Counted from the first letter of the whole stretch, positions 1,991 to 63,031 are shown. The stretch is DNA of 63,881 nucleotides, filler included, from Reclinomonas americana ATCC 50394 (GCA_048213135.1; 6 parts of 6 records of this genome joined end to end with filler, not necessarily neighbours in it), one strand, 5' to 3'. A program made the numbers and translations. Notes: generated by a model from the letters alone, not told the origin.

Positions 1991-3921
1991 TCACATGAAA
2001 TGCTTCGACAGCTGCGGTCCCGTTTGCCTTGCATAATGCGAGTCGCCTTTCAGAGCGTAGAGCATGGAAGTCGGGCGGTCGAGTCGCTCAAAGACCATGC
2101 GGCAGATTGGTTGACGATGTCGCACAATGAGATCGTCTTCGTAGGCTCTGACTTCAAGCACGCATGTAGTACCGCGCGCTGGTTCGGTGCACGATGAGCT
2201 GCTGTGCATCAGCAGTTCGCAAGCAGAGGCACATGTCGATAACGTACCACCCTTGTCAGAGCTCCAGCCACCGCCAGAGCCAAAAAAGCCAGCGTAGTGC
2301 GCACGAAATTCACCAGTGGTTGAGTCGTGCGCTAGCATTTCGCATCCGTAATCGGGCGGAACGCAGAGCAGCTCGTACGTGTTGAATATGTAAAATCTCT
2401 GTACGGCCAACCGTCGTAAGCCACGTGTGGGAGTAACATTTGCACCACAATATACGTATACGTACGCCTTTCTCGAGCCACAAGAAGCCTTCGACCTTTG
2501 TAATTCAAGTCAGCAACTTCTGAGGGATTCACACACACACACACACACACACACACCGGCTTCGGAATTGGCTCCCAGAAATCGACAGCTCGATGCGCGC
2601 GTTCCTTTGTGAGATCCAACTCCTTGAAGGTTTTCTTTGCAACGTAGCCCACAATATCNNNNNNNNNNNNNNNNNNNNNNNNNNNNNNNNNNNNNNNNNN
2701 NNNNNNNNNNNNNNNNNNNNNNNNNNNNNNNNNNNNNNNNNNNNNNNNNNNNNNNNNNNNNNNNNNNNNNNNNNNNNNNNNNNNNNNNNNNNNTGGCGGC
2801 GACGGCGACTGCCTTTCAGAGACACGGACAGACAGACAATGCACTGTTGCGCACCACACACCTTGATCAAGGTCCATGGTCAGCATCAGACCATTGTCGA
2901 TGAGCACTGATTCCAGAGGCAGAGCCTCGTGGGTCTTGGTATATAGCAGAGCACCCTCCGACGTGTACAGGTCTTGCAGCTCTGTGGTTGTCAACACGTC
3001 ACGTGTGCCGAAAAACATTACTTGGTTCAGGCTGAGTCCTGTGTCGTCGCGATGGCTTCAGTGCTTCGGGAGGTGGTAATAAAAAGGTACGGGCGAGTCA
3101 AACCTGCCACCACAACGACGTCAAAGCTGTTGCTTGTCACTTGGCACCACACATCGCCTTCGTAGCCTGGTGGAATCTTGTCGTACCGGCTGGAGTAATC
3201 GCAGATGCACCGAGTGTTCACGTCTGCAGCAAGGCAACGCAGTGAGCTGCGAGGAGCACGCAACTGACGGTTGACAACAGCAACGATGTACCTGCGCGAC
3301 CAGTACTGCTTTTGGAGTTCGTGTATGCAGTCATGCCAGCCGGAAGCTTGAACCTCTGCTCTAGTCTCACCAGGTACACAGTGTTGCGCTCCAGCACCGT
3401 TGGCGTGCTCAAGTCGATCACTGCACGCATTGTGAGGAATGGCTTCGGCGTTGTGAATGCAAGCTGATCGACGCAACATGGTCCCCGTCGAAACTTGTCC
3501 AGCAGCTCAGCCACCGTCTCGGATTGCAGCGGCAGAATGCAGCCAGGAAGTTTGCATGCTAACACACACACACACATATGCAGCTCATTAGCGACAGCCA
3601 CCTCTGTCGACGTCCCTCTTGCGGGGAGAGCGTACCTTCGCTGCTGAGAGTGAGATCAAGCGATGCCGGTTGCAAATGCTCGATTCTCACAGACTCGTCT
3701 GCATTGCAGATGAGCTGGCCTTGTGCCATCATCTCTTTCATGCTGTAGAGAAGTGCGCGGTTAAGGGTGTGCGGGGGGTGGTTCAGCTGACACAATCACA
3801 GACAGACAGATGAACTCAACGTGTCGTGCGACAGTGCGCCGCGTACCGCCGGCTCCGCCGACGGCACACGCCTGTGCCTCGACTGCACAGACAGCGATTC
3901 TCCACTCGCAGACGACGCCAT
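1991..3921 (-). CDS. dcd: dCTP deaminase, long two-domain bacterial type (DCD family), copy 1, multi-exon
   Basis: Spliced motifs LQPASLDLTL, TNSKSSTGR, YDKIPPGYEG, DIVGYVAKK, DFWEPIP, GEFRAHYAGFF, VLEVRAYE and QLSKHF*. ATG at 3921, TGA at 1991. One intron contains a gap. Confidence 0.85.
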
Positions 3922-3983
3922 TTGTACACTTGTTCACTTTTCTCACACACCACCACCTGGAGCAATTCTTGTTACCAACGGTC

Positions 3984-6352
3984 TCATGTGCGCGGCGGGA
4001 CCACGGGCTTGAAATGTTTCGACAACTTCGGCCCGCTCTGATCGGCGTCTGCATACAACACACAGAGCTCAGCACACGATGAAGAAGCACATGCATGCTA
4101 TAGGCGAAACGAGGACGCAACAGTTGCTGCCAGTAGCCGTCGAGTACGGTCGCGAGGTTGTCCGGTCAAGCCGTTCGTATACCATGCGACAAATCGGCTG
4201 GCCCGCTGCTGTGAGAGTCTCGGCGCCCATGTGAACAAGTGTAATGTGCGTACCTGGCGATGTCTGACGATCATGTCGTCCTCTGACACAAAAAAAGCAA
4301 ATGAACGCTTGTCAGATCGAAATTACCCTCGCTGCAAACTTGCAGGCGCCGCATCGCCGCATCTCACCGAATGCTCGAACTTCCAGCACCCCCGGTGTGC
4401 CCATCTCTGCGGCACCGAGAAAAGCACGTGTAAGTGCTATACGCGCAACGATTCACAAAAGCACGAGAGTCATCGCGCAACTTCCCGATTCTCGGACTCC
4501 GAAGCCCGGATCAAAAAAGCTGCAGTTCGACATGAGCTCAGCTCACGCTTACTTTCGTGCGTGCACTTGAGCAGCGCACTCACACCCACCCTGCATAGTG
4601 CGCACGAAATTCGCCAGAGGTGCTGTCGTACGGTACCATTTCGCTGGCATGCAGCAGATGTGAGTCAAGCGGCAATTAAAGTCGACACTTTGCTGTCGTG
4701 GAGCAACCACTAACCACGCCAAGTCGTGCGGCTGCAATGAAGGTTGCGTGTCACACTAAGCACCCAAGTAGAAATGACAAGGAGGCTGTGGGTAGCGTAC
4801 CACGACAATGCATTCAGACGTGCAGAATATGTAGAGAGAGCCCCGTTGAAGCCAGAGGAAACCGTTCTTCTGCATGCAATCGGTGACAGACAGGCACGTG
4901 AAGTGAGAGGATATGCGGGCGTGAAGCAACACATACAGCCGCACGAAACAGGGCGGGGAATTGGGTCGAAGAAATCATCGGCGTCGTGCGCTGCCACCTG
5001 TCAATGTGTCAGCGAAAAAAACTGTCGCGATGCGCCTGCGAAATGCGTTTCACCATGGTCAAGTCCAGTTCCTTGAACGTCTTCTTGGCCACAAAACCGA
5101 CAATGTCTGCCACAACGTTGCGCTGTGCGTGAGACGTTTTCGGCCACGACAAAGCCCCCCACCCATCCATCCACCCACTCACCTTGGTCCAAATCAATGG
5201 TGAGCAGCAGTCCATCATCCATCCAGACATCGTCCAGTGGCACCGGTACGTGTTCTCTAGTGTACACCAGCGGCTGTGCGGCGTACAGAGAGCGCATCTC
5301 CTCCTGTCGCAACACCTGCAGTGCATCCACCGGTACTCAGTCGCCAAAAGAGCGCACGAGGCATAGGCGGAAGGCGACCATACATAACTTGTCGCTCGCC
5401 GTAGAAGATTGCCTGGTTGAGACTGAGGCCTGCAGTGACCACACAGTTGAGTACACTGTGAGCAGCCGACGCAGCGTCGAGGTGCACATGCAACCTTCTT
5501 GCACCACACAGTTGAACGTGTTGGCCGTGAGTTGTACCCACACATCGCCCTCGTAGCCAGCGGGGACCTTGTCGTAGCGCGGGGTGCGATCACACATGGA
5601 TCGCGTGGTGACATCTGCAACGTGTGAGCACCGGCAGAGTGAGTTCTGCCTCCTCCCTTTGCGCGGCGGACACCGTACCGACTCGGCCGGTTGAACTCTT
5701 GGCATTGGTGTAAGCGGCGATGCCCGGCGGCAGACGGAAGCGTTCACGAAGGCGAACAATGTACAACACTCCGCGATCGAGGATAGTGGGCTGCGAAATG
5801 TCGATGCCTGGCGCGCCGCTGTTCGTCAAGTCACCGAGATGGTAAGGGGGGGCCGACGACACAGGGCGACGCAACGTGGGCCACGTTTGAACTGCGTCAA
5901 CAGCTCGGCAATGGTCTCGGTCTGCAGTGGCAAGATCGAACCGGGCAACTGCGAAGCACACGCAGGTAAGGACATTCGGTAACACCCGCCATGCGCACGT
6001 AGCTGGAGGTGAAGAAGTGAACCTTGTATGCTGCACACGCGTACATGGGCGATGAGCGAATCGAGAGTGGGCGTCGATGCGATCAATAACACCGCGATCA
6101 AACTGACCTTCGTCGGCGAGTGTGAGATCAAGCGAAGCCGGTTGTATCTGCTCGTCGTCGAATGGTGGTGCACGCGACGATGCAGAGGGTGCACTGCTGA
6201 CAAGCCAGCCATCGTGGATCAACGCACGCATTCTTCGCACACACATACACACACAAGAGTTCACTTGTCAGCATGCGTCATGTGACTGCGCGACTTGTGT
6301 GCACGCCTCACGAAACGTGTCGTAGGAGAGAGTGCCGTGTTGTGGTACCGAC
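3984..6352 (-). CDS. dcd: dCTP deaminase (DCD family), copy 2, multi-exon, start lies in the gap
   Basis: Motifs IQPASLDLTL, TNAKSSTGR, YDKVPAGYEG, DIVGFVAKK, GEFRAHYA, VLEVRAFEDD and GSNYADQSGPKLSKHFKP. TGA at 3984. Confidence 0.85.
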
Positions 6353-6968
6353 NNNNNNNNNNNNNNNNNNNNNNNNNNNNNNNNNNNNNNNNNNNNNNNN
6401 NNNNNNNNNNNNNNNNNNNNNNNNNNNNNNNNNNNNNNNNNNNNNNNNNNNNNNNNNNNNNNNNNNNNNNNNNNNNNNNNNNNNNNNNNNNNNNNNNNNN
6501 NNNNNNNNNNNNNNNNNNNNNNNNNNNNNNNNNNNNNNNNNNNNNNNNNNNNNNNNNNNNNNNNNNNNNNNNNNNNNNNNNNNNNNNNNNNNNNNNNNNN
6601 NNNNNNNNNNNNNNNNNNNNNNNNNNNNNNNNNNNNNNNNNNNNNNNNNNNNNNNNNNNNNNNNNNNNNNNNNNNNNNNNNNNNNNNNNNNNNNNNNNNN
6701 NNNNNNNNNNNNNNNNNNNNNNNNNNNNNNNNNNNNNNNNNNNNNNNNNNNNNNNNNNNNNNNNNNNNNNNNNNNNNNNNNNNNNNNNNNNNNNNNNNNN
6801 NNNNNNNNNNNNNNNNNNNNNNNNNNNNNNNNNNNNNNNNNNNNNNNNNNNNNNNNNNNNNNNNNNNNNNNNNNNNNNNNNNNNNNNNNNNNNNNNATGC
6901 AGTCGTCTCCGCTGACATGAGTGTGTAATTTATGTACTGAATGTGCGACACACAGACAAACAGAGAGA

Positions 6969-7071: not shown

Positions 7072-8063
7072 TCACTTGTCGGTTGTTGTTGATATCCCGC
7101 CACCAGCATCATCACCCGAAGCGACGAGAGTGGTTTGCCGCCTCTTCTCGTGCAGGCCGAGCAGCCAGGCTTGGATCCGCATACGCAGATCGTCGTTCGG
7201 CAACAGCATGTTNNNNNNNNNNNNNNNNNNNNGGAGTCCAGCACAGAGTCAAGCACCGGCGACATGGGTGAGCGATCCAGCCACGCCTCAATCGCCGATC
7301 GCTCGTACGTGACACTGCGATGCGCGCGAGCGATGCATTTGTGAGCGGAGAAGAGATGCACGTACACATATGCATGCACACAGGCGCGCATACCCGTCCG
7401 CAGCAATGACCGGATCGTCCATGACCGACAACGAAATGGGGCACTTGAACTCGTCGGGTGCGCCTGCATCGTCGTCACCGGCATCGTCATCATCGCCATC
7501 GCCGCCACTGTAGACGGCACTCGACCCTGCGCACACTTCACATAAGCCCCTTCCATCCAACACTAACAACACCACAAGAATGACACCAGAAGCCGCGCGC
7601 AGAGACACACACACACCATGCACGCCCGACCCACTCGCACCGCTGCCACTCGCGCTTCCGCCACCCCAGGCCGACACCTCTCGCGGAATCACCCTGCCAC
7701 CGCCGCCCCCACTATGCGCACTTTTCGCCTTGGCGAGGAGCCAGGCTTGAATGCGCACACGCAGATCCTCATTCGGTATCAACTCGTTGCTCTCCAACGC
7801 CAGCCCCGTCACCACCGGCGAGAACGGCGAGCGCTCCAGCCACGCCGCAATCGACGAGCGCTCATAAGTCACTCTGACATCAACACAACACGATGAGACG
7901 GAGTCACGCTGCTGTCAGTCCTCAGCACTCGCGCACACACGCACCCATCACACGCAATGACCGGATCGTCCATCACCGACAGCGAGATGGGGCACTTGAA
8001 ATCCTCCGGTGCATCCGCCTCCTCATCGTAGCCCTCTGCACCCACCCCCTCCCACTGTGAGAC

Positions 8064-8098: not shown

Positions 8099-8265
8099 GC
8101 ACGCACACTCAGCTCACCCCAATCAAGCGACGCGACATGATGCGCGCCCGACGACGATGAACCCGATCCCGATCCCGATGCCTCTCCGTCTGCACACACA
8201 CACGTAGAGTGAGAGCAGCACACGCACATGCACTCTCCACCACCAGACACGCAACATCGCGACAT
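7072..8265 (-). CDS. Protein with two tandem U-box domains (putative E3 ligase)
   Basis: Two copies of P(E/D)xFKCPISLSVMDDPVIAxDG-VTYERS(S/A)IxAWL...L(I/L)PNxDLR(V/M)RIQAW. The spliced start reads MSRYGEASGS. Confidence 0.85.
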
Positions 8266-8337: not shown

Positions 8338-9261
8338 ATGGAGTGCGGTCTTGATGGTGAGCAGCTGCTTGCGCTAATCTCTGCGGTGGCGCACGTGGAG
8401 TTTCCGGCACAGCAGGATGACGAGGAGCAGCATGATGTCGATGTGCAAGAGGAGTCGACCGAGGCTGAGGAGAATGCCAGTGTGCTGCAGGCAGTGCCGG
8501 CGTTGGCGGCGCATCGAGGTGCGTCAGGGAAAGAGAGAGAAAGAGAGAGTGTGTGTGTGTAAGCAAGAGTGGGAAATGGCCTGACTGTGCTGCTCTCCTT
8601 GTTGTTGCAGAGGCCGCGGGGGTGGTACAGGCGTACCGAGCGTTCTTGCGAGACGCTGTCGGGCAGAACTGGGGTCAAGTCGAGGTCGAGAGTCGCATGT
8701 CGGAGGCTGGAGTTTTGTTGTTGCAAATGCATACACTCTCTCGCTCTCTCTCCCTCGTGTGATGCTGACTCGTGGTGCGCAGGCGTCGGCCGAGACCACC
8801 AGTGTCATGGTGCAATTCTGGAACCGGGAGCGCGAAAGGGTCTGTGTCTGCGCTCGCCCTCTTCTTTCTTCGTCGTCTTGCTCTGACTTGAGCATTCCGT
8901 GGTTGTGTTGCAGCTCCGACAGCACCTTGTGCGAAGCACAGTGTGGGGCCAGCGGTTTGAGAAGCTCAACTGGCGAGTGGATTCGCAGACACAGTCGCGG
9001 CGAGTGGCTGCCCTCAATCGCCCGTGTGCGGTGGTCGAGTTGGTCACGTCGCAGCCGTCGCTTGGGGTTGCGTCTCTCTCTCTCTCACTCTGTGTGTGTT
9101 GTCGCTTGCGTGGTTCTCACCGGTGTCGCGCGTAGGCTCGCGGTGCACGAGGGCAGGAGAGCAGCAAGAGCGTGACCTTTGAGATCACGGCCAGCACGCT
9201 GGCAAAGGTGGTCGCCCAGCTGTCACACGTGCAGGAGGAGATTGCAAAGTACACGGCATGA
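8338..9261 (+). CDS. COMMD1: COMM domain-containing protein 1
   Basis: 5 exons. The COMM domain reads FEKLNWRVDSQTQSRRVAALNRPCAVVEL...VTFEI...LAKVVAQLSHVQEEI, preceded by QFWNRERERLR. Confidence 0.8.
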
Positions 9262-9314: not shown

Positions 9315-12300
9315 TCATTCATCTCCATCGTCGTCGTCGTCTTCGGCACCCTCCACTGGAATGTTGACGTGGAACAGGCGAATTCCGGTTTGGTCGAACA
9401 GCGATCGTGAGGTGGCCATGGTCGACACGCAAATCTGCGGGGGGCAATGAGCATGTCACACGAGGGCAGATGTGTGAGACAGATGTAACGCACCTGGCCC
9501 CAGATGTACGCCGTCAGCCAGCTGCTGAGGCTGGGGTGTCGTACATTCGGGAACACCATCAGCGGGTGCGGCACTGGCAGCGCACCGACCAGTGTTGTGG
9601 ATCGGAGAAATTCGAGCACATCGGTCTCTTGCATCATTCTGCGTGCGACACGGCGGCGGGTTAACAGGCAAGAACAAGATAGGCGGGCAAGAATCAGGCG
9701 CACACGAACCGCCCACTGCTGAGGCGCTCCAGCTTTTGCGACAGGGCCTGAATGAGCAGCAGTATTGTCTTGAGCTTGGGCGACAGCACGCCACGGGCCT
9801 CGGCGAGCCAGGCGCCATCGGGTGCGAACTGTTGCCCCGGAGAACGCGCAGCCACCGGTGGTGATGCTGGTGCAGCAGACGACCCAGACGCTCCCTCGTT
9901 GGGGCCAAGCACTTGCTGCAGCACCGTGTCCAGCAACTCATCGACAACCTCGCGCCGAGCTGCCTCCTCCACGTCTGCCTCGCCGTCGTCGGCCACGGAC
10001 GCCGCCACAGACTCGCCTACTGTGGCCGCCACAGAGACGCCAGACACGGACTGCGGACTGAGCGCCGATGGTGACATGGTCGGTGATCGTGGCGGAGGTG
10101 GTGGCGACGGTGAGGCAGCACCGGCAGCTGCTGTGGACGACGCGCCCGCACTGTCCATTTGCTCACCATACAAGGCTCTGCGTGCCACGGCCTCGGTGTG
10201 TGCCAGAAAATCACTTGCAACACCACCCGTGCCTGCGGTCATGCTGCGTGCGCGAGCCGAGGACAGTGGTTAAGTATCACGAAAACAGCAACCAATAAAA
10301 CCGGGGACCACTACGCAACGATGGGTCGCCGTACTCGAGGTACTTGGCGAGGTCGAAGAACACAGACGGGTTGATCATGATTTGGTGAGTGAGTGGCACT
10401 GTGCCCCCGTACTGGTACTGCACGCAGTTGACAAAGGCCAGCAGCACGAAGTCGGCATACTGGTAGTTGTAGTAGCCGCCCTCGAGCACTCTGCGTGACG
10501 TGACGCGCTTCAACAAGGACATGAGAGAGGCGGCGGTGGTGGCCGACATGTTGGTGAGGAAGGGCGACATGTTGGCCAGTGTCTTGAACAGTTGCGGGAA
10601 GGTCAGCGTGATCAGTGCGTCGCCGGTGGTGATCAGATGCTGCAACGCCAGGATCACGAAATCCGCGTGGGAGCCGTCGCGGAAGTACGGAATGCCAGTC
10701 GGCAACTTCAGGCCGACAAACAGCTGGTGACACAAGGAGATGGTGAACTCGCGGTCACAGCTGAGCGTGTGCAGCACCAACGCTCCGTTCTGCACGAGGC
10801 CGTAGCGGTTGCCGTCCTCGTTGCGGATGGTCAGCATGAGGCACAGCAGGGGGTACACCAGCTCGCCTGAGGCAAGACACCATGGTGTCAGCAGGACGAC
10901 GGCAGACACGACACATTCGAATCTATACACACACACACACACCAATGTCACGACGTGATGCCAGGTGCGCCCTGAAGCCGGCGTTCGTCTCAATCAGCAG
11001 GTACAAGAAGACCACCACCTCGTGATGGAACGAAAAGTCACGCTGCGAGTGCGGCAAGTAGGTGTTGTTGACGGTCAGCTTGTCCTTCAGCAGTTGCACG
11101 AGACCGACAAACACGGCCTCAAAGTCGTCGTCGCTCGCAATGTGCTCTCGCGCAAACTCCAAGTAAATGTTCCTGTACCCGCGCGCGCAAACACACACAC
11201 AGTCAGGCATGTGTGGTGTGAAAACTCGCGCCTCATTCTTCTCTGACCTTCCGGGTACAGCCGCCGCCGCACTCTCGTTGCCGGCATTCTTGTAGTCCAG
11301 GAACACATCGAGAATCTGCGAAACCGGCGACGTGTGAGCGACGGACGGCATCACACAGAAAAAAGAAAACACACGANNNNNNNNNNNNNNNNNNNNNNNN
11401 NNNNNNNNNNNNNNNNNNNNNNNNNNNNNNNNNNNNNNNNNNNNNNNNNNNNNNNNNNNNNNNNNNNNNNNNNNNNNNNNNNNNNNNNNNNNNNNNNNNN
11501 NNNNNNNNNNNNNNNNNNNNNNNNNNNNNNNNNNNNNNNNNNNNNNNNNNNNNNNNNNNNNNNNNNNNNNNNNNNNNNNNNNNNNNNNNNNNNNNNNNNN
11601 NNNNNNNNNNNNNNNNNNNNNNNNNNNNNNNNNNNNNNNNNNNNNNNNNNNNNNNNNNNNNNNNNNNNNNNNNNNNNNNNNNNNNNNNNNNNNNNNNNNN
11701 NNNNNNNNNNNNNNNNNNNNNNNNNNNNNNNNNNNNNNNNNNNNNNNNNNNNNNNNNNNNNNNNNNNNNNNNNNNNNNNNNNNNNNNNNNNNNNNNNNNN
11801 NNNNNNNNNNNNNNNNNNNNNNNNNNNNNNNNNNNNNNNNNNNNNNNNNNNNNNNNNNNNNNNNNNNNNNNNNNNNNNNNNNNNNNNNNNNNNNNNNNNN
11901 NNNNNNNNNNNNNNNNNNNNNNNNNNTCGTCGGCACAGTCACCGCGCTTCTGGCACGCGCTGTTCTCGCTGAGCGACACCATGGAGGATGATGTGTTGGG
12001 TGGCGGCTCCGAGTTCACGCATGAGTTTGTGTGGCGCATGCGACGGGAGCGTGAGGAGAACCTTGTGTTGCTCATCACCAAGGTGTGTGTGTGCGAGAGA
12101 GAGAGAGTGTGTGTGTGTGTGTATGTGTGAGAGAGAGAGGGAGGGAGAGCGAGTGTGTGTGTGTGCGCACCATGTCGCTTACACTCTTGTGTGCGTGTGT
12201 AGTGTGTCGACATTCTGCGACGGTTTGCGCTGACGCAGGCCACTGATGGTGGCGCGTCTGCGTCTGACGCTCAACCGCCGGCGACGGCATCGTCGGCGCG

Positions 12301-13900: not shown

Positions 13901-16900
13901 ATGCACGCCGAGTTCCTTGCTGTGCGGAGTGCGTGGATCCCGGCGTTGCGGTGTACACTGTCGGTGTTTCGACATCGCGTGTATGGTGAGAGAGAGAGAG
14001 AGCGTGCGCGTGTGTGTGACAAGTCTTGCCATGCTCAACTGCGTGTCTCTCTCTGTGTGAAGGCTATCGCGTGGTTCACTGGTGAGTAACAGGCATCGCA
14101 TGCGTTTCCCTCTGTGTGTGTGCGCGCGTGATCTCATCTGTGTATCGTGCAGTCCGGTGGAGGGACCACTGTGTGGCGCGGTGTTTGTGGTGCCCACCGA
14201 GGCCAGCAATCACAAGGGATTGCCGCACACACTGGAGCACTTGAGTTGCGTGCTGTTCTTCTCCTGTGGAGCTCTCTTCCGTTGTCTGACTGACTGCGAG
14301 TGCGCGTGTGAGCAGTCTTCATGGGCAGCAAGAAGCATCCGCATCGAGGTTATCTCGACAACCTGGCGGTGCTTTGCGGCACGTCGGGCACCAATGCGTG
14401 GACTGCGGAGGACCACACGGCGTACACGATATACACGGCTGGCGCTGATGGTCTGCTCTCTTTTCACTCCTCTCTTCTCTCTTGCCCTGTCTCACCACCC
14501 TCCGTCGACTGTCGGGCAGGCCTGCTGACCATTACGCCAGTGTTCCTCGACCATGTGTTGAACCCGGTGCTCAGCGATCAGGCGTTCACCACGGAGGTGT
14601 ATCATGTCGACGGAGAGGGCCGACAGCAGGGTGTGGTGTTTTGCGAGATGGAGGGACGGTGTGTGCTGTGCGCATGCGTCTCTGGAGAAGAGATATCTGA
14701 TGATGTGCTTTGTCAGTGAGAACACGGAGGACGACCTGCATGAGAACGCGTTGCGCCAGTTGCTGTACCCGAACACCGGCTACGCCTTCGACACTGGTGG
14801 CCTCACGCCCAGCATTGCAACGCTCTCGAACGAGGAGATTCGCGAGTATCATCGGCGCTTCTATCGCCCCGCGAACCTCTCCATCATTGTGTTGGGTGCG
14901 GTGCCGCTTGATGCGTTCTTTGAGTGTCTGTCGACGGTGGACTTTGAGAGCAGCGCGCAGCGGTGCGTCAGCCCCACTGTGCATTTCTTGTGGCGTGGCG
15001 ACTCATTTTTATCGTCGACGAAAAGCAGATCGGCGAGCGACGACTCGGCCGGCAACCCCGGCGTGGCTGCGGCGTGGAGCGCGCCCATCCCACCGGTGGT
15101 GCTGCCGCATGTGGGGTCGCCAGTAGAGTGTCATTTTCCGTCGCAAGGTCACTCGCCACAATCGCGATCACTTTTACGCACACCACGCTCACGAAACGCA
15201 TTGTGTCCGCTGCAGACGAGGAAGTGGGATCGGTGACGTTTGCGTGGCCGGGTCCTCCGCTGCACGACTTGGCCACGCAGATGGCTCTCGAGTGCATGCT
15301 GTGGTATCTGGAGGACACGTCAGCGAGCCCACTCCGACAGGAGTTTGTGGAGTGTGCGAGTCCGATTGCCAACGATGTGTCGTGGCACGTATTCGAGTAT
15401 CCGCAGACCGCATTCAGTGTGTCGTTCAGGTTTGTTCCTTTCTTGTTTGTGGTAGATGGTATGCGCTTTCTGTTTTCGGTCTAGCTCACTCGTAATGCAG
15501 CGGTGTGCGCACCGGCAAGTGTGGCGATGACATTGACTCAAGTCGCGCGAGCGACTGTGAGAGTGACGAAGATGGTTCTGACGAGGGTGGTGGCGGCGCA
15601 ATGTCGGAGGACGACGTTACGCTGGAATCGTACCTGTTGCGTCCACGGCCATGCGTAGCGTGCGTTTCTTCGATTGGTGACACGTTGGTGCCGCACAGCG
15701 AGGGGCAGCGGCTGTACGAACGCTTTGGGGCAGTGCTACGCCGAGTCCGCGACGAGGGTTTCCCCGACGGCGTCATGGCCAAGGCTGTCAGTCGCCTTCG
15801 GTGTGTGTTGGCGGTTGCACGCACACATGCATACTCGCTCCACGTTTCCTGATGTTTCGTTCTGGTACCTCAGCATCAAGCACCTGGAGTCGATGGAAAA
15901 GAGCCCGTTCTCCTCGGCCACCGATATTCTCCTCCCGGAGTTGATCTTCCCCGACGACGTGACCACTCCCAGTTTCGTTGTCGATTGTCGTTTCCCTCAC
16001 CACCCTCGAGTGAGAGAAGGATCTCTCATGCGTCCTGCATTTCCCGCAGTCGGCACTCGCATGGCGAGTGTGGTGGAGCTGTTGGACGACCTCGAGCACC
16101 GGCCGAGCTCGTTCTGGGTGAACTTTTTGGAGACCTGGTTCCTGTCGACTCCGGTACGTGTCTGCGTGCCGCAATCCTTTTGACTCTCTGTATTCTCATC
16201 CCGTGTGGAGTAGCATCAACTAAAGATGATTCCCGACGCTCGGCGCGCGCGCACACTCGAGGAGCACACTGCGGAGCAGGACACTGAGCGGCGAAGTGCT
16301 CTTGGTGCGCTGTCTCGCTTGTGGATGTTCTCCTCCTCTCTCTTATGCATTCCGTGTCTGGCGCAGGTCCGGATGGATTGACTGCATGCGCCGAGCGAGT
16401 GCGCGAGGCACTGGAGCACAACCGGCCGCGCCTCGATTCTTCTGACCTGGAGCGTATTCACTCCCAAGCCGACCGGCGCGCTCATCCCGTGTCGGAACTC
16501 CCGTCACGCGTGCAGGTATGGATCATGCATTTCTCACTGTCTCTTATGCGCGTGAACCGCTCCGCTGACTCGTGCGGTGCAGATGATCGAGGATCCAGCC
16601 AGAGCACCTTTCCCGATCCAGGCAGTGGCACTCGGCACCACACAATTTGTGCATGCGCGAATGCTGTTCCATCTCGGTGATCTGCCCGACCATCTGCGTC
16701 CGTTGCGCACTCTGCATTCTCTCGTCGACCTCCTGCACATGTGTTGATCGTTGTCGTTGTCGTTGTTGTCGCATGACCACCACACAGAGCTCTGGTCCTC
16801 TTCCAGGAGTTGTTCATGGCCTGCGATTTGCGCGATTCCGATGGCGTGACGCTGCCGTACACTGACGCCGTGCGCCAGTTGGCACAAGACGTTGCGGTGT

Positions 16901-17381
16901 ACTGCCTTGCGTGCGTGTTTCGATTTCGCTGACTTGAAGTGTTTGGGTTCGAATAGACGGTTGCACAATCATGCTCTGTTGGTCAGGGTGGTGGCACGTT
17001 TGGGTGCACGCATTTTGGTGAAGTGCTCTTCATGTACTTTACAGCCGAGCCCCGCAAGTGCGTGCTCCTGCTCGAGTACTGTGCTGTGCCCCTCGCTGAT
17101 TGTGTGCTGTTGCGCGTGCAGGATGCAACAATTGCTGTCGTGGATTCAGCGACTGCTGGCCGACACGCACTTTACTCGTGAGCGCGTGCTGACGACGACA
17201 CGGAACTTGCTGTCGACCGTGATCGAGGAGCGCCGCGACGGCGACTCGATGTGCGACGCCGTCGCCACTCTTGTCACGCAGCCGAATCGGGAGTCCTCCA
17301 ACTGTTGTGTATCTCTCCCTCTCTTTATGCATTCACACGCGTGTGCGTCTCTCTCACACCCCATGCGCAGATATCTCTGTC
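13901..17381 (+). CDS. M16 family (insulinase-like, M16C-type) metallopeptidase, partial. It continues on the inverted contig 17723-18120.
   Basis: Inverted zinc motif GLPHTLEHLIFMGS (HxxEH), TNAWTAEDHTAYT, FTTEVYHVDGEG..GVVFCEM, TGGLTPSI, EYHRRFYRPAN and SASPLRQEFVE. Confidence 0.9.
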
Positions 17382-21049: not shown

Positions 21050-23574
21050 TCACAACTCCTGCGACCGCTGCTGGTGTGCAGCTGGTCGCTGCGGCGGCTT
21101 GACGTGGGCATGACCGCTTCGCGGCGGTCGGCCACCCTTTGGCGGGCTCTGTCGCCGCGCACCCGAGCTGCTCGCATCGCGAGCCGGTACCGACTGCGCG
21201 GCGGTCTTGCTGGAGTTGCCAGCAGTAGTGTCGTCGGCGCTGCGCGTGGAGCGCAGAATGCCGGAGCGAGCAGACGGCGGCAGCTGGAACACGTCGTCGG
21301 GAATGGCGGTGCACGCATCGCTGGCGCAGCTCGGCAGGTTGTCCTTGATGATCTGTGTCAGCGTGCGGGACTGCGCAAAGCTGAGTTCATCGGCCGTGTA
21401 TGCTCCCGGAGCTGTGATGAATAATATCCGTGGTCAGCACGACTTTGAAAAAGTGAACGCTGCGGTTAATATGGCATATACACACCGAGGTAGAAGTAGC
21501 GATCGGCATCGCGCGACTCCTCGAACTGGTGCCACAGCATCCAGCGCTGTGTCCAGCCGAACGGGCTGTTGTCCGCTTCGCCTTCCGACATGAGACCTGC
21601 ATGTTTATCGCGATCAGCAAGAGAACCAAGCAGTGGGAACGAGTGTGTTCACGTGCAACGCACCCATCCACAGGTCGACCAGCTGCACGTTGTCGTACGT
21701 CTTGCCATCTGTGTAATCATACGATGCGCGTAAGCGTTGGAAGACACACGAACACTTGCATCGCAGTGGACGCAACTCTCCGGGTAGAACCGGGTGCCGT
21801 AGGTAGCACGCAGATTGGCGGCGTACGGTGCGCCGCAAGTGGCGGAAGACACATTGCATTGTCCCGGGTTGCCGGGGTAGCAGTCGGTGTCGACCGCGCA
21901 TGTGCAGTGGCCATGGTCGGCGCCGTCGGGCCACACGCAGTTGCCGGTGCCACAGTCGTGGTTGCCCCAGCAATCACGCGGGCCCTCTTGCGTAATCTGC
22001 TCGAACGTCAGCAGGTCGCGCGGGTAGTCGTTGGCCTCCCACCAGCTCGGCAGGCCGTGCTCACGCGCACGCTGAATGTTGAAGGCCGCCAGATCTACCA
22101 GGCGACAAATGTTAGCAGGTGCCTCTTTCCCAGCACGGCGGCACGGTGCTACTCACCAAACACGATTCCGCGATCGCACATCTGGAAGTTGCGCAAGCTG
22201 TTCACCACAAACGTGTCGCTGCACGAAACAAACGAGACATATGAGCCGTGTGCAAGATACACATCGAGGGTGAACTGATACACTAACCGGTCCTGAGCAG
22301 ACGACGTGGCGGCGCCGGCGAGAACCGGACCCACGCCAATGGTTGACACTGGCGAACTGTGAAACAGCAAGGAGCAGGATGAGCACATGATGCAGTATTG
22401 GGGGAAAGTCTCTTCTCAAACACGCAACGAGGCCGCTGACTGCAGAATGGTGGACGCAGTCGAAACGCTGGTGTTGGCAACAGTCGGATATCCAGGCAGG
22501 TTGTTGGCCAGCTTCGCGGTGTCCGACACCAGCGAGTGCAGGCGGAAGGCAGCGTGTGCCCACTCGTTGCGAACGCGAGGATTCATCGAAGTGACACCGG
22601 CGTAGTCGTCGACAAATGACGGCATGGCCTCGCCAGCATCTGGTACGTAGTCGATCCAGAAGACTGTACGAAAATCAGTGAGGTGAGCACAAAGTGTGGA
22701 GTAACCTGCGGAATTGTGCTCCAATCCGAAACGCAACTCTTGCGCAGGAAGTCGACAAACACAATCTTCTGGTACTCGCCAATCAGCAAGTGGCGTGCCT
22801 CCTGGAAGAGCGCCTCATCGTCGGAGAGGTTGAGGGTGGTGCGGAGCGTAAGCAGAGCATCGCCGCAGTTGGCCGGCGCCGTCGTGGCAACATTCAGGCA
22901 GTCGGCAATGCGGTTGTGCTCGCGCAAGAACAGCGTATGCAACGCCAGCAGGTTGAGGTTGTCGCTCACGCGAACGTCGCCCGCCACAAAGTAGTTCGGG
23001 CTGTTGTCCACCGGCTGGTTCGGCAGTCCCATGGTGTTGAGTGGCAGCAGAGGTCCGTCGGGACCGTCGGACGTGAGCATGCGACCGCCGCTCAAGGTGC
23101 GGAGCGCCTTGGAGCGATACACATCGCTGCCGTAGACCATGGAGGCTGTTGGGTGGCAGAATAAGCATCAAACAGTGTTGAAAGAAGCGGATGGCAAGTG
23201 TGCGCACCATCGACAAAGTGAGTGACCTGGTTGCTCTGGTCAGGCATGTCATCCTGCAATGCGGACACAAACGAGAGAATGAGTGCCACCGTGACATACG
23301 CATGGATGCAAACTGCACGAACAACGCAACAGTGGGCTTGTCGAGAAAATCGGTGAATCGGTTGCGTTGCATCGGGATCGACGTTGAGGCGCCATTGCAC
23401 GAGATCGGGTCGCCGGCAGCAATCGGAATGTCTGCACTCTGCGGCAGCGGCACAAACAGGTTCTTGAGAGTGCGCGTCTCCTTGCGTGCCAGATCCATGT
23501 CGTGTGCCACCAGCTGTGCACGCCAGCAGTGTCAGCTCTGCGATCATTGACCAATGTACAAAGGAGCTCGGTCT

Positions 23575-47699: not shown

Positions 47700-49842
47700 A
47701 TGAGCTCGAAGGAGCTGTCGACGAACCCGGCCGACGTGACGGTGGAGCGATCGAGTGAGGTGACTGAGCTGCACTTTGCGGGTCGCAACCTGACCGAGCT
47801 CGACGCCAACCTGCGCCACTTTGTCAATCTGGAAACACTGTGGATCAACGACAATCGACTGACGTCGCTGGGTGGGCTCGTGGAGGCACCGCCCCCGCGC
47901 AGTGCGTCTGCGGTGGAGAAGAAGAAGCCACTGGGGTGTGTGTGTGTGTGTGTCTCTCTCTCTGTCGCGTCTCCTCCTCCACTCATGCAATGATGACAGT
48001 TGTTTCCGGCTAAAGGAACTGCTGGCGCACAACAATGCACTGGCGCGACTGGATGCGCTGGAGGCTGTGGGCTTCCTGGAGGTGCTTTCGTTGTATAACA
48101 ATCGCCTGCGCGATCTGGACGAGACGCTCGGCTGGATCGGGCACCTGAAGCACTTGCGCAAGCTTGGTGCGTCGGTCTTTTTGCGAGTGTGACGGCGAGA
48201 GGCTCGATCGCGAGTGTGTGACTGTATGCCTGTGTAGATCTGTTTGGGAACCCGGCGGCCGAGGAGAACAACTATCGTTTGCGCGTGATTTACACGTTTC
48301 CGGCCCTCGACGTGCTCGATCGGCATGGTACTGCTGCTTCCTGACATACTGCCGCCGCCGCTGTGAAACGACGACTCACTTTCTCACTCACCTGTGCAGT
48401 CGTGCACGACGAGGAGCGCTTGGAGGCGAGGAAGCTGTTTGAAAAGGTGTCTTGCGCGAGCGAGCGAGAGCAAGTGTTGTCTGTGCACACAGGAAACTGA
48501 AATCCGAAAACGCTGCGTGCATGCAGGGTGGAGAGCTGGAGTTTGCATTCATGCAGCGAGTGACGGACGATCTGAGACCACAAAGGGTCCGCGGTGGTGC
48601 GATGAGTGTGCTGGAATGCGAGTTGCAGGCCAAGGCGGAGCGGATTGAAAAGGAACGCGTCGATGCCGAGGCGCGGGTTTTGCAGGAGGCACGAGATGCC
48701 ATTGCCAAGGTGCGAGGCGGGGGGCGTAGCGGAATGCGTTGCGAAGTGGCACTTGCTTACAGTTCGGAACAGGAGATGGAAAAGTACGAGCACGTCATGG
48801 CTCCAAAGGCCACGCCGGTGCCGCTGAGCAACGCCGAGTTGGCGAAACAGGCCGAGTGGAACGAGCACTTTACCGCCGACGACATGAAGGCGCTGACAGG
48901 TACGGCGCACCTGTGTCTCCCTCCTCTTTTATCACGTCCACCGACACGCACACACACGCACATGCAGACGCCTATGCGAGTGCCGGTGGTGCAGGGGTGT
49001 CGCTGAATACGGCGGTTCGGATGTTGGAAAATTGGCACATTTGTTGCGCTTATTCTCTCTTCGCTGTATCCCAACCCTCTCCTCCGTTGCTCACGTGCCT
49101 TTTCCTCCAATGCGCACAGATGACGTCCCAGAGGTCGAGTGCGCACATGTGTTGTCGGATTCGGGTGCACCCTCGGCCGACAATGTCACCATGGCGCAGC
49201 TGCTGGCCGGTGTGTTGGCATCGTCGTGGATTCTGAGCAGGCTGGGTGAGCGATATCAGCGACTTAGCCGGGAACTGCTTGCCTCCGGCAACAGCGACTC
49301 CTGTTGCGTCTTTTCGCAGCGTCTGCGACTGCCTCTCGGAGTTTCATGCGCAAATAGCAACTCATTGCAATTGTGCTGAATAGCGCTGAAACACGGACAG
49401 CGTGCTGTCAAGCTGAGCATGCGAGCATCGCGCATCGAGAAGCAGGAGAACGAGGCCGCCGAGCGACGGCAGCGCGAACTGGCCAACGAGCACGTCAAAA
49501 CGTTGCGTACAAGCCGCATTTGGCAAATAGACCCGCTTTCGCTCACTCTCTCAATCTCTCCATACATACAGCGGCGATGTAGTGCTCCGACACATCTATC
49601 ACGCGCAGCACGACGAGCGCGCCGCCACCGAAGCCGATGTTGCGTAAACACCCAAGAGAAAAAGAGGAATATCGTACACCACTGCGCGTTCGAACTAATC
49701 TGTTTTCCGTATGATCATGCAGCTGTTTGCCGCTCGCCAGTCGGCCTCGTCTACCATCCAGCTCGATGCGCAGCATTACAAGGATCGACTAGCACGCGAG
49801 GCGCGCGCCACTCTAACGCGCGCCAAGCGAGTAATCAAGTGA
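47700..49842 (+). CDS. LRRC72: SDS22-like leucine-rich repeat protein, LRRC72-like
   Basis: FVNLETLWINDNRL, FRLKELLAHNN, LEVLSLYNNRL and LRR cap LDLFGNPAAEENNYRLRVIYTFPALDVLDRH. The last exon depends on a donor at 49639; without it the stop is at 49647. Confidence 0.75.
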
Positions 49843-54145: not shown

Positions 54146-55032
54146 ATGGCGGCAACAGAGACACCTGCGCAACGACGTGCGCGTCTGCGAGCAATGCGCG
54201 AGCAGGCTGAGCAGACAGCCACGGCGCCAGCAACTGCAGCAGCACTGGGCAAGCGCAGTGCAGAGACTGATCCTGCAGACTTGTTCTTGGGCACTGTGTT
54301 GGGTGCGGCTGCTGGTGGAGTGCCGGCCTCTGTTGTGCAAGATGATGATGAAGAGGAGCAGGCAGATGGGGAGGCAGGAGAGGCGCAGCGGGGTCACATG
54401 CAAGTGGACGATGCTGATGAGGCGGCTGATGATGACGAGTTGCGTTCACGCGCCTTCTCTCTCTCTCTCCCGTCGCTCGTCTCTTACACGGTGTGCAGTG
54501 AGGGAGGAGAGGCACCGACATTGCGCTTCCGCAACTACAATCCGCGTCATGAGGAGCTGAAGAAGGCCAAGTTGGCCAAGATGGAGGTGCCATCGCTGGA
54601 GCCGCACATTGCGCCGACGATGTTGCAAGTGAAGCAGCGATTGGAGGCCGAGAAGAAGGAGGTGTGTTCTGTGGGTTGTCTCGCTGTCTGTCTCCCATTC
54701 TTTGTCTCAACGCAACAACAGGAGAGCGTGTTGAGCGTGGCTCCCACGCAAGCCAATGCCGATCTGAAGCGACTGGTGGCCAAGAAGCTGGCCAAGCTGG
54801 AGCGACGCACGCAGCAGGCTGTCATTGACCTCGTCAGTTGTGTCGTGAGCATGCGCGCGCGCGCGCGCGTCGCCCTCGTGGAGCTGTCGACTGACGCGTT
54901 ATTGTTGCAGAGGCCAAGTTGGAGGCGGAGGGCGTGGACGCCTTGGGTACCGCGCTGGCCGATGCCGTCAATGAGCGGGATTTGCCGACTGCTGCTTCTG
55001 GTGGGGCCGATAGTGATAGCGATGCTGACTGA
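54146..55032 (+). CDS. CCDC12: Spliceosome-associated Cwf18/CCDC12
   Basis: RRARLRAMR, LRFRNYNP and APTQANADLKRLVAKKLAKLERRTQQAV. 4 exons. Confidence 0.88.
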
Positions 55033-57535: not shown

Positions 57536-59204
57536 CAGGTCGAGGAGAGGACCAAGGAGAATCTCAAGCAGTCGCTCGACCGCTACTCGCACTACTACAC
57601 CAGAGTTTCGTCGCTGTTCGCGCAGCTCGTTGCGCGCCCTGGTCTCACTCGCGGTGTGCAGTACTTGTCGCACCTGCAAGCTGAGCGGCTGGAGGCGGCC
57701 TCGAATGCAGAAAAGGCGCGAGCGCTGATTGAGTCGGTGAGTCGTGCACTTGTTTGCGTGCGTGTGCGTGAGGGAAACTCACATGTGGCCGTCTGCAGTT
57801 GCGTCAAAAGGCCATTGGCAGTGATGCGCTGGCCACCGACGACGAGATCGTTCGCGAGGCCGTCAGGACACGCACGCTGGCACGCAAGACGCTCAAATGG
57901 ACTTGTTGCGTCCGAGTGTGTGCGTCCGTGACTCGAAGAGAGGCTAACTCGTTCTCCACAGACGTGTACTCGTACTACGAGCAGGACGATGCGAAGCGTG
58001 AACTGTTCGAGTTCCTGCAAGAGGTGTGTTTTCATCGCTTGCATGCTAGTCTCTGCCGTGCAACTCACGTTGTGCCGTGGAACAGGATCTGGAGCGAGCN
58101 NNNNNNNNNNNNNNNNNNNNNNNNNNNNNNNNNNNNNNNNNNNNNNNNNNNNNNNNNNNNNNNNNNNNNNNNNNNNNNNNNNNNNNNNNNNNNNNNNNNN
58201 NNNNNNNNNNNNNNNNNNNNNNNNNNNNNNNNNNNNNNNNNNNNNNNNNNNNNNNNNNNNNNNNNNNNNNNNNNNNNNNNNNNNNNNNNNNNNNNNNNNN
58301 NNNNNNNNNNNNNNNNNNNNNNNNNNNNNNNNNNNNNNNNNNNNNNNNNNNNNNNNNNNNNNNNNNNNNNNNNNNNNNNNNNNNNNNNNNNNNNNNNNNN
58401 NNNNNNNNNNNNNNNNNNNNNNNNNNNNNNNNNNNNNNNNNNNNNNNNNNNNNNNNNNNNNNNNNNNNNNNNNNNNNNNNNNNNNNNNNNNNNNNNNNNN
58501 NNNNNNNNNNNNNNNNNNNNNNNNNNNNNNNNNNNNNNNNNNNNNNNNNNNNNNNNNNNNNNNNNNNNNNNNNNNNNNNNNNNNNNNNNNNNNNNNNNNN
58601 NNNNNNNNNNNNNNNNNNNNNNNNNNNNNNNNNNNNNNNNNNNNNNNNNNNNNNNNNNNNNNNNNNNNNNNNNNNNNNNNNNNNNNNNNNNNNNNNNNNN
58701 NNNNNNNNNNNNNNNNNNNNNNNNNNNNNNNNNNNNNNNNNNNNNNNNNNNNNNNNNNNNNNNNNNNNNNNNNNNNNNNNNNNNNNNNNNNNNNNNNNNN
58801 NNNNNNNNNNNNNNNNNNNNNNNNNNNNNNNNNNNNNNNNNNNNNNNNNNNNNNNNNNNNNNNNNNNNNNNNNNNNNNNNNNNNNNNNNNNNNNNNNNNN
58901 NNNNNNNNNNNNNNNNNNTGCGGAGAAGCTGGCGCAGCTGTTTGAGCAGACCGACAAGCATCCGTACAATCGCGAACAAATGCAAATCGCCATGCGTGAT
59001 GCTGAGCGGGTGAGTTGGTGGCAAATGTGTCTGTGTGTGTGTAGGTGTCGAGCATGTCCTCACACGCACGCACATGTTGCTGAATTGGTGCAGAGGAGAC
59101 AACACATCATGGAGACGGAGCCACCGTCACCACTCATCAACATTAGTGGAAATCCGTTTGCCGCCGCTGCTGCTGCTGCCGCCGCCGGCTCCGGCATTCG
59201 ATAA
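57536..59204 (+). CDS. Ariadne-family RBR E3 ligase, C-terminal Ariadne domain
   Basis: SLDRYSHY, ARKTLKWTYVYSYY, LFEFLQ.DLE and AEKLAQLFE. Confidence 0.8.
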
Positions 59205-59392: not shown

Positions 59393-61234
59393 CTAATGGA
59401 TGGTGTGGCCATTCGTCCAGAGCGAGAAGAGACCGAGGGCGATCTCGCACGCAATCAGCCAGATAATGATCCATTCGAGTCGGGCACTCTTCTGGTTGTT
59501 CAACATCTCCAGGAAGTGCTTCACATTGTGTTGAATCACTGCACACAATGCTGGTCAGTTAGAGAGACGCAACAGAGACGCAAGCGCACATGTGGGGTGC
59601 GAGCGACGTACGATTCAGCTTGAAATCAAACGTCTCAAAGCGCTCCTCCAACTCGAACTCCTCGCGCATGCTCTCCCACACGGTGGAGTACTTGGAGTAC
59701 TTCCACGGGATCTCCGAGCGATCGAGAATGCCCAACTTGGTGATCACATCGGTGAGGATGGAGTTGTTCTCGGCGACAATGGTGAACAGACGCTTGCGGC
59801 TCATGTTGAAGACGCCGGACTGCTGCACGCGGCTGTTCATCTCCGTGAACTTTTGCAACATGGCGTCGACCTGCAACGGGCCGAGTCAGGGCGGGGCAAA
59901 GAGAGCAACATACACACATACATGCACGCACCTTTCTTTCGTAGTGCTCGAGAGCCACGGTCTGGGCGAGGACGCCGCAAATGACAAGAATGTTGTTCAA
60001 GTCGAGCTTGCGCACCACAATGTACTCGTGGTTCTGCTGGCTCCACACGTCGAGACCCGGGCGCACCACGATACCAAAGTCCTCCGCCTTGAGCGACGAG
60101 AACGGCTCGGTGGCGTACTTGCGAATGATGGCCAGGCACTCACGCTGCCGCCACTCCTCAAAGTTGACAAACACCACGCTGCCGTAGCGGAACACCACCA
60201 TGTACTTGTCGGGCTTCGGCGGCTCCAGTTGCTGAGCATGACGCACGAGAGTGAGGGGTTGCGGAGTCGGGGGAGAGGAGGAAGACAGTGGGTTGGAGAG
60301 AACCTGAAGTGTCTGCGCCCAGTCGCCACTGCTCTCATCGTTGAAGGCGACGATGAGGGAATCACGCTGCAGCGAGTGTGGCCGGTCGCTGTAGGTGTCT
60401 TGGAACATGCGCACGAAATCAATCATGCGGCTGCGCTGCGAGATGAGCAAGTGCACGCCTCTCTTGCAGGTGCACGGAGGAGACGCAACGCGACGTGGAA
60501 CGCCTTGACTTTGAACATCACATCCGGCTCCAACGACCCCGCAGGCGTGCCGACCGGGCCGGGCGGAAGCACACCCGTGGCATGCGCCTCGAGAGTCGAC
60601 AGCAAGCCACTCAGCGCCACGTCGGCATCGGGTGTGGCGCGAGGTGCGACAGCCGCCACCGCCGCCGGTGCGGTGGCGACCGCCGACGGTCTCTTGATGC
60701 TGAATCGCTGCGATCGCAGGTACTCGACCGCAGTGCGTCGCGCTGCTTGTGCAGGAGGCGGAGGCAGCAGCGTGCTGCCCGTATCCTTTGTCACAGCCGC
60801 GGTGAAACGATGCGGTGTGCCAGTTTTCCCAGGTGCTGTTGTTGTGGCAGAGGATGAAGAAGAAGAGGAGGAGGTGGCTGCTGGTGCTGCTGCTGGTGAG
60901 CGTTTCACACTGGCCGGCGCCACCGCATCCACCGACTCATCAACACCCCCAATGAGCTCCTCCAGTGATAATGTGCGCGCCGAGGGAGGAGGAGGAGAAG
61001 AAGAAGAAGCAGATGCTGCTGCTGCTATTGTTGTTGAAGGTGGTGATGGTGGTGAGGTCTTGTCTGTGAGACAGTGAGAGTGAGCGCGCGAGAGAGATGC
61101 GTGCGTGTGTGTGGATGCGTAAAGTTACCTGAACGCCATCTTTTTGTCAGTGCATGAATCGGCCACTGTAGTGAAGATAGCCGTGGCGGGCGGTGCGTGG
61201 CACCAGAGGCCACTGCTGCGAGCGATCGCAGCAT
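59393..61234 (-). CDS. DUF155 / RMD1 (RMND1-like) protein with a possible mitochondrial presequence and a C-terminal TM helix
   Basis: VVFRYGSVVF, VLAQTVALEHYE, LGILDRSEIPW, EEFELEERF and SARLEWIIIWLIACEI. The N-terminus is Arg/Ser/Ala-rich. Confidence 0.85.
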
Positions 61235-62356: not shown

Positions 62357-62374
62357 ATGACTGAGTACAAGTTG
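62357..62374 (+). CDS. ras: Ras GTPase, first exon only (remainder lost at the scaffold end)
   Basis: ATG ACT GAG TAC AAG TTG encodes MTEYKL, followed by a G|GTGAGT donor. Confidence 0.6.
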
Positions 62375-62567
62375 GTGAGTCCTCACGCCATCCGCGTGTG
62401 TGTGTTTGTGTGTGTGTTTGTGTGCGTGCGTACAGTGAAGAGCAGAAGATCCATGTGTGTGTGTGTNNNNNNNNNNNNNNNNNNNNNNNNNNNNNNNNNN
62501 NNNNNNNNNNTTAATTAATTAANNNNNNNNNNNNNNNNNNNNNNNNNNNNNNNNNNNNNNNNNNNNA

Positions 62568-63031
62568 AACTGCACATCCAAATCGCCGTACGAAAACGTC
62601 TGCCCGTCCACTGTGCATGCACAAAGGCGATGAGTGGCACGCCGCGCACGAGTCCAGATCTTTGCCCCTCACCTGTGCACACCGCAAAGGAGAACAACTC
62701 GGGATCCACCTGCTGCAAGACGGGAATGTACGTCGGCACGCGACCCGTGTTGACCGTCTCTCGCACGTGCTCAAAAATCTCACACACGGTGATCTTGAAG
62801 GATCTGACAATGCGGCACACCGTCAGCAAGAGAGGGGAAGGCGTGTGCGCATGCGTGACGCAACTCGAAATCGGCCACCGCCAGATTTTGACTAATGGCG
62901 CGCTGCACAATGTTGACGCTGAGCATCATGTTGAGGAACTCGGGGAAGCGGATCATGCCGTCGCCGGTGACGTCCAGAGGGAGGAGTGCGGCCACAATGT
63001 CGGCGCGGTGTGGATTGAGGCCCCTCTGCAT
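62568..63031 (-). CDS. Glutaminase with an N-terminal EF-hand, internal fragment
   Basis: EF-hand DVTGDGMIRFPEF, then IVQRAISQNLAVADFESF and GRVPTYIPVLQQVDPELFSFAVCTVDGQTFSYGD. Confidence 0.85.

Follow-up and report, generated by a model that had tools for sequence, protein, structure and literature searches.

Two donor classes offset by one base in predicted introns of Reclinomonas americana, consistent with a shifted register at the 5' splice site

Roca and Krainer reportedly described 5' splice sites (donors) of human genes that are used in a register shifted by one base (+1) in 2009. Such sites are a small minority of atypical human donors. Here we describe a donor class with a similar displacement in a stretch of 63,881 bases of DNA (the window) from Reclinomonas americana ATCC 50394. 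The predicted introns of the window begin with one of two kinds of donor, an unshifted class (U) with a conserved G at intron position +5 and a shifted class (S) in which this G stands at +6; the two profiles are offset by one base, S donors have lost the exon-final G (G-1), cleavage of S donors is N|GT, and the introns are otherwise identical. According to the portion of Tan et al. 2016 (PMC4856993) that we draw on, the shifted (+1) register of human donors was established by suppressor genetics at rare sites, and bulge +2/+3 registers have been validated for some human sites.

The S donors resemble the human shifted-register donors in having GT at the cut, a consensus displaced by one base, an intron G+1 that replaces the exon G-1, and no need for a G at the exon end. 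They differ in that the displaced block of the human sites, as given in the same portion of text, matches U1 (AAGUAU type), whereas here it is a rigid GTTGCGT whose C would mismatch textbook U1; the class also makes up about 27% of the predicted donors, and only its +1-equivalent position is mismatched. The bulge +2/+3 and asymmetric-loop registers (PMC4856993) likewise place one extra nucleotide between the GT and the conserved G, but as that portion describes them they keep exon position -1 paired, whereas the exon G-1 is lost here. A further comparison is with donors split into exon-side and intron-side classes, two LUC7-dependent classes in the section of a preprint consulted (bioRxiv 10.1101/2022.12.07.519539). 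S donors share with these a reliance on one side and are an extreme intron-side class, but the LUC7-dependent classes, in that section, share one register, whereas here the conserved G moves from +5 to +6. When the literature was searched for the string GTTGCG/GUUGCGU, the matches listed concerned primers, aptamers and microRNAs, and none among them used it as a donor motif.

The window is GC-rich eukaryotic DNA with 22 runs of N. Five identical spacers of the form N44-TTAATTAATTAA-N44 lie at 18121-18220, 42596-42695, 55106-55205, 57436-57535 and 62467-62566, and TTAATTAATTAA has stop codons in all six frames. These five linkers mark the window as a chain of contigs, and pieces that are neighbours in it may not be so in the genome. 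Genes were modelled with our own dynamic-programming exon chainer, which uses codon log-odds, demands GT...AG and a frame kept over introns, and allows no in-frame stops. In a donor-blind pass, introns were scored by length, acceptor and a branch-like motif, with GT as the only donor information; this gave 125 introns, of which 103 were kept once strand conflicts had been resolved. An unsupervised mixture of positions +3..+8 of 117 donor-blind donors separated three components, which were G-t-G-T, t-G-c-G-t and junk. Retraining used a two-component donor score confined to +3..+8 of the intron. As this score ignored the exon altogether, the selection of donors could not create an association with the -1 base. 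The trained profiles converged to GtGTGt and TGCGTt, and the trained pass converged on 160 introns, 147 of which were kept. These introns are short (median 71 nucleotides, nt); they end in a CAG acceptor and carry branch-like motifs, CTCAC/CTGAC, at a distance of about 20 nt from it, and all 147 kept models have the GT...branch...YAG layout of major-type GT-AG introns, with the frame restored on removal. Pfam profiles continue from exon to exon in the PRMT5, peroxidase, RMND1, cwf18, U-box, DCD and Hid1 genes. The PRMT5 exon protein had 5,483 relatives in a search, the 120 listed reaching at most 77% identity, and a search with the M16C peptidase exon protein found only yeast relatives at 38-41% identity (4 matches); neither list contained a protein of the same species.

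Among the 147 kept introns, 94 are U (G at +5), mostly GTGCGT, GTGTGT or GTGAGT, which is about two thirds of the predicted donors, and 39 fit GTTNHG (the S core), 28 of them as GTTGCGT. A broad S class, with G at +6 and not at +5, has 42 members and adds three non-GTT sites (GTACTG, GTAGCG and GTCGTG). A sequence-only reading of this DNA had claimed that donor class depends on the last exon base, and the contingency table over the predicted introns of the window bears this out: exon position -1 is G at 68/94 U donors and at 2/39 S core donors (odds ratio 48, p = 1.4e-13), or at 4/42 S donors under the broad rule of that reading (Fisher p = 5e-12). That unshifted donors follow G almost always was right in that the majority do and too strong in degree, since G precedes 72-82% of them in the gene-model sets. 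Within the U class G-1 did not vary significantly with the base at +4 (A 17/19, C 22/30, T 28/44); GTGAGT follows G in 11/11 cases and GTGCGT in 16/20, a trend that falls short of significance in this +4 comparison. Where an S core donor follows a base other than G, A, C and T all occur, in all three phases, and the proposal that coding sequence is freed from G-1 is to that extent true as a description.

The individual sites cited in the sequence-only reading are all present, some of them a few bases away (9068 at 9067, 38011 at 38022, 35819 at 35818). The only S core donors after G are the two it gave as such, ggg|GTTGCGT at 9067..9073 (+), predicted in a COMM-domain gene whose upstream exon reaches COMM profile position 39, and cgg|GTTGCGT at 38022..38028 (+), predicted by the gene model. 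The unshifted exceptions to G-1 are there as well: c|GTACGT at 2460..2465 (-), seen in the sequence outside the kept gene models, c|GTACGT at 59606..59611 (-) in the RMND1 gene model, and c|GTCTGT at 34830.

It is very improbable that all this is an artefact of prediction or chance, with GTTGCGT a frequent word picked out by a trained model and the -1 pattern a by-product. That explanation can point to a donor model that is self-trained, to an S donor (3264) that is demonstrably false, to a doubtful choice by the model among in-phase GTs at 35788/35818 and 29795/29801, and to read-through that is open in 8/39 S introns. However, no exon base entered the score, and the association precedes any donor model: in the donor-blind pass -1 is G at 33/49 U donors and 0/10 S donors (p = 8.5e-5), and GTTGCG stands at 5/103 donor-blind donors, although only 1.07% of GT sites overall have this word (p = 0.005). 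Among high-confidence introns, those with a length of 50-130, flanking exons of at least 45 nt each and blocked read-through, -1 is G at 51/62 U and 2/25 S donors, and when sites with a rival in-phase GT within 12 nt are also removed the association still holds (29/37 U, 1/21 S). Word counts that use no intron model show a strand bias: there are 31 copies of NGTTGCGT in sense orientation within gene spans (A9, C8, G2, T12), 5 antisense to genes and 6 elsewhere. GTTGCG is found at 33 predicted donors; exons hold 9 further copies in 31.1 kilobases (kb), a rate of 0.29 per kb, and intron interiors 6 in 11.8 kb, a rate of 0.51 per kb. Its 48 sense against 22 antisense occurrences suggest that about 26 of the 33 predicted GTTGCG donors are real.

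Homology, paralogy or profile spacing also argues against an artefact. Of ten S donors that could be checked in this way, six are confirmed exactly, three more are consistent with the check and one (3264) is refuted. In the PRMT5 gene, c|GTTGAGT at 30021..30027 (+) and tca|GTTGCGC at 31369..31375 (+) lie at junctions that align without a gap to seven homologues, with a continuous profile at the former, and the conserved junction residue at both sites places cleavage at the GT itself (N|GT) instead of at the displaced site. For these two donors the alternative cut NG|TT, one base downstream, was rejected, as it would break the alignment with the homologues. A third PRMT5 donor, t|GTTGCGT at 29661..29667 (+), stands beside a variable loop, after which the alignment resumes correctly. 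In the M16C peptidase gene, a|GTTGCGT at 14245..14251 (+) falls inside a block that aligns gaplessly to the sequences labelled P0004 and P0001. Three S donors of the peroxidase gene agree with the An_peroxidase profile: across a|GTTGCGT at 22731..22737 (-), also found by the donor-blind pass, the profile runs from 275 to about 277, and at c|GTTGCGT, 22422..22428 (-), and t|GTTGCGT, 23324..23330 (-), exon lengths match the profile spacing within about 3 positions. The gapless block at 14245 and the unbroken profile at 22737 likewise place the cut at N|GT. Finally, two diverged dCTP-deaminase-like paralogues have S donors that agree in codon position and in phase, t|GTTGCGT at 3471..3477 (-) in paralogue A and c|GTTGCGT at 5869..5875 (-) in paralogue B; the flanking exons are conserved, and in both genes the following exon begins at position 70 of the DCD_N profile, while the -1 bases and the intron interiors differ.

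Several U donors were placed in the same way. In PRMT5, g|GTGAGT at 31006..31011 (+) and g|GTGCGT at 31513..31518 (+) form gapless junctions. The DUF155 profile of RMND1 runs from 91 to 93 over g|GTGCGT at 59926..59931 (-), and the profile of the U-box gene from about 22 to 24 over g|GTGCGT at 7939..7944 (-). At another PRMT5 junction the model chose t|GTGTGT at 29801, so that its protein has 2 residues inserted that none of the 7 homologues has, and g|GTGCGT 6 bases upstream, at 29795..29800 (+), removes this insertion. This upstream site is therefore the likely true U donor, and some of the U donors without G-1 are likely to be model errors.

The S profile at position k fits the U profile at position k-1, except at +2 and +5. 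The total-variation distance between S(k) and U(k-1) is 0.12 at -1, 0.09 at +3, 0.17 at +4, 0.02 at +6 and 0.04 at +7, whereas comparison at the same position gives 0.61 to 0.97 (0.61 at -1). At +2, S has the obligatory T where U has its G+1; at +5, C is found in 34/39 S donors vs 30/94 U donors at +4 (p = 3e-9). Across +3..+7 the S motif is tighter than that of U (T.93, G.90, C.83, G 1.0, T.83). On the exon side, the base composition of the broad S class at -1 (A.33, C.26, G.10, T.31) is similar to that of U at -2 (A.32, C.28, G.20, T.20), and the intron G+1 of S occupies the slot that the exon G-1 has in U.

These observations bear on the choice between a shift and a bulge. With a bulge, U1 would pair with exon -1, G+1 and U+2, one U (+2 or +3) would be bulged, and GCGU would be read as +3..+6, so that the intron-side pairs are identical to those of the shifted register. 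We hold this to be improbable, even though the human precedents noted above exist and the bulged register has marginally the best of three near-zero energies with textbook U1. A bulge would keep the G-1 slot, and a weak site should keep or even strengthen it, yet G is depleted there, to below both its frequency in U donors and the exonic background of 26%, and a one-base shift fits this better. The sequence-only reading had also pointed to donors that follow CA, which are present as cca|GTTTCGT at 15972..15978 (+, gene model, with a weak gapless alignment to P0001), the PRMT5 site 31369, aca|GTTGCGA at 35818..35824 (+), aca|GTTGCGC at 44238..44244 (+, gene model, in the gene we presume to be OvoA-like) and tca|GTTGTGT at 54837..54843 (+, cwf18 gene, both gene model and donor-blind pass). 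The candidate at 35818 is in phase with a GT 30 nt upstream, at 35788, which the gene model uses instead. CA precedes 4/11 imperfect S donors and 1/28 perfect ones (p = 0.017), a compensation in keeping with -2, -1 and +1 pairing to those U1 positions that usually lie opposite -3, -2 and -1. This compensation and the likeness of S-1 to U-2 favour a shift over a bulge, as that reading had concluded. A register shift is thus supported as far as the geometry of the motif and the loss of G-1 go.

The reading we propose has about an even chance of being correct as a whole. It holds that the introns of these genes are ordinary GT-AG introns, about 70 nt long and spliced out by the major spliceosome, that their donors are of two kinds, G|GTG(T/C/A)GT in U and N|GTTGCGT in S, and that S is the U motif read one base downstream by U1 in the +1 register. 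An S donor is in these terms the eight-mer of U, N-G|G-T-G-C-G-T, in which T has replaced the first intron G and the cut falls one base upstream. The conserved block (a G, then TGCGT) would be read one base further into the intron, the chemistry would still cut before the only GT, and the intron G+1 would fill the slot of the exon G-1, leaving the last exon base free. By analogy with the rare human sites, the reader may be the 5' end of U1 in the +1 register. As textbook U1 gives an energy of about zero, the proposal would further need either a U1 that differs opposite intron +4/+5 or a helper that reads UGCGU.

Several results weigh against this proposal, among them the duplex energies, for which the textbook U1 5' end was taken as printed in PMC4856993. 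U donors in the canonical register reach a mean of -5.7 kcal/mol, and S donors only -0.49 (canonical), -0.63 (shifted) and -0.84 (bulged) kcal/mol with this U1. In a run with decoys, S donors gave -0.22 (canonical) and -0.68 (shifted) vs -1.76 kcal/mol for exonic decoy GTs, and textbook U1 separated donors from decoys with an area under the curve (AUC) of 0.71. With S energies near zero in every register, the energies neither choose a register nor explain recognition, and in the comparison of three registers that the sequence-only reading had proposed as a check S donors are no better than decoys. The idea of that reading that G+1 substitutes for the exon G-1 in U1 pairing is consequently supported for the slot, by the offset of the profiles, and not for the pairing. 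Furthermore, C at S+5 would face pseudouridine 5, with which A would pair, and A is found there once in 39. Loss of G-1 goes beyond what a shift predicts, as G at S-1 (2/39) is rarer than G at U-2 (19/94, p = 0.036) and rarer than the exonic background before GT (p = 0.0015, run with n = 38). An Rfam search of the window gave no match, so that no U1 gene was seen there. All introns and counts are predictions from one 63.9-kb contig chain, partly checked by homology, and iterative donor training may inflate the S class by favouring the S consensus. One S prediction is false: a|GTTGCGT at 3258..3264 (-) lies within the true intron 3291-3224, whose donor cag|GTACAT realigns paralogues A and B.

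Part of this evidence suits a dedicated second reader, either a variant U1 complementary to GUUGCGU or a UGCGU-specific RNA-binding protein that recruits the spliceosome, an explanation we regard as doubtful. It would account for an S motif much tighter than U at +3..+7, for C at +5 enriched beyond the U class, and for textbook pairing of about zero in any register. When 16 hypothetical U1 ends varied at positions 5 and 6 were compared, those with G at position 5 separated donors from decoys best (AUC 0.83-0.84 vs 0.71), and with such an end S donors in the shifted register reach -4.8 to -6.6 kcal/mol, which is a prediction and not evidence. However, a second reader is argued from donor statistics, a single U1 with G at position 5 would cover both classes, and a reader that works in two registers would by itself lead one to expect the match of S(k) to U(k-1), the base on the exon side included. 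GC-rich genomes may also carry C at +4 for compositional reasons, which we count against a second reader. Returning to U1 in the +1 register, a more specific form of the proposal is that U1, or a second U1, has G for pseudouridine opposite +4, that GCGU is the strongest core, and that roughly a quarter of introns genome-wide are read one base out of register and need no G to end the exon; this we put forward tentatively and think unlikely.

Apart from their donors, S and U introns are alike. Median length is 71.5 nt for S and 71 nt for U (p = 0.73), phases are similarly distributed (p = 0.57), the branch A lies 20 nt (S) or 21 nt (U) from the acceptor with CTCAC/CTGAC motifs common to both, and a C-AG acceptor ends 36/39 S and 82/94 U introns. 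In an all-against-all comparison of 147 intron interiors there were 6 matches of 13-18 nt, with a single S-S match of 13 nt. The shared length, phase, branch and acceptor and the absence of a common interior indicate that S introns are neither minor-spliceosome introns nor a mobile family. The U12 donor motif is RTATCCTT. U12-type introns resemble S introns in that their donor motif is rigid and extended and the exon end has no consensus; the donor words of the two are unrelated, however, and U12-type introns are ruled out by branch motif, branch distance and acceptor, all as in the U class. An introner or other mobile intron family is likewise rejected, as the copies are not alike along their length. 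Shared descent of S introns as copies of one introner family ending in GTTGCGT is thus hardly credible: it would explain the rigid terminal motif and the runs of S in some genes (four in a row at 49043-49639, for example), but the interiors have next to nothing in common, length and composition are the same as in U introns, and two diverged paralogues retain S donors while their intron interiors differ.

The remaining S donors are predictions of the gene models. Those reading GTTGCGT on the plus strand are t| at 15636..15642 (in an insertion relative to homologues), t| at 33325..33331 (read-through open), t| at 34071..34077, a| at 40039..40045 (low confidence, with a 10-nt exon ahead), a| at 54439..54445 (cwf18 gene, 60-nt intron, read-through open) and t| at 57905..57911. 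On the minus strand the same word is predicted as t| at 8249..8255 (read-through open), c| at 10313..10319 (Hid1/dymeclin-like gene, also donor-blind), a| at 20189..20195 (P-loop NTPase gene), a| at 21770..21776 (haem peroxidase gene, also donor-blind), c| at 27034..27040 (N-terminal region, 212-nt intron), t| at 28327..28333 (low-scoring gene), c| at 43373..43379 (272-nt intron rich in simple repeats), c| at 60483..60489 (RMND1 gene) and a| at 62858..62864. Variant words are c|GTTGCGC at 16702..16708 (+) and c|GTTGCGG at 16891..16897 (+), and the S-like a|GTTATGT at 5382..5388 (-, also in the donor-blind pass), a|GTTTTGT at 8712..8718 (+) and t|GTTGTGT at 17304..17310 (+, downstream exon cut by an N run). 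At 49043-49645 (+) four consecutive introns of one gene are all predicted to be S, t|GTTGCGC at 49043..49049 followed by t|GTTGCGT at 49303..49309, c|GTTGCGT at 49502..49508 and t|GTTGCGT at 49639..49645; elsewhere S and U alternate. GTTGCGT is also found inside introns that have other donors, at 59539-59611 (-), 47025-47102 (+) and 3224-3291 (-), the intron at 59611 (-) holding a tandem TTGCGTCTCT. These internal copies could be chance occurrences, cryptic donors or an intronic element.

Some features of the genes themselves were also noted. The dCTP-deaminase-like (DCD_N) paralogues form a tandem pair at 2857-3538 (-) and 5015-6028 (-) with conserved intron positions; at the second shared position the donors are g|GTACGG and cag|GTACAT, the latter lacking G at both +5 and +6. 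An N run separates two Hid1/dymeclin-like coding pieces of opposite strand, one at 9321-11374 (-), with profile positions 332-569 and beyond, and one at 12203-12979 (+), with positions 97-294; they could be two head-to-head paralogues or the result of an inverted contig. A long gene at 21089-27093 (-) encodes both an animal haem peroxidase domain, which has a Cys-rich insertion, and many fibronectin-III-like repeats. The gene at 44155-47440 (+) has DinB_2, FGE-sulfatase and methyltransferase parts, an order reminiscent of ovothiol synthase OvoA; in the model it is fused, probably in error, with a leucine-rich-repeat gene that lies downstream. At 3-1772 (+), cut by the start of the window, is an intron-free open frame of 590 residues with Gly/Ser/Val-rich repeats of SGGV type, for which a Pfam search gave no match.

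For annotation, a donor model with a single profile misplaces S introns: the donor-blind pass has S core donors at 10/103 introns and the trained pass at 39/147, and the trained model itself mis-called at least two sites. If transcripts confirm the S donors, they would be a natural, large-scale case of register-shifted donor recognition, which is known in human from rare sites, and a way in which the end of an exon can escape the preference for G-1. If a U1 with G at position 5 proves true, a near-universal U1 5' end would have changed together with the splice sites in this lineage, and register shifting would be a routine mode of donor recognition and not a rare exception.

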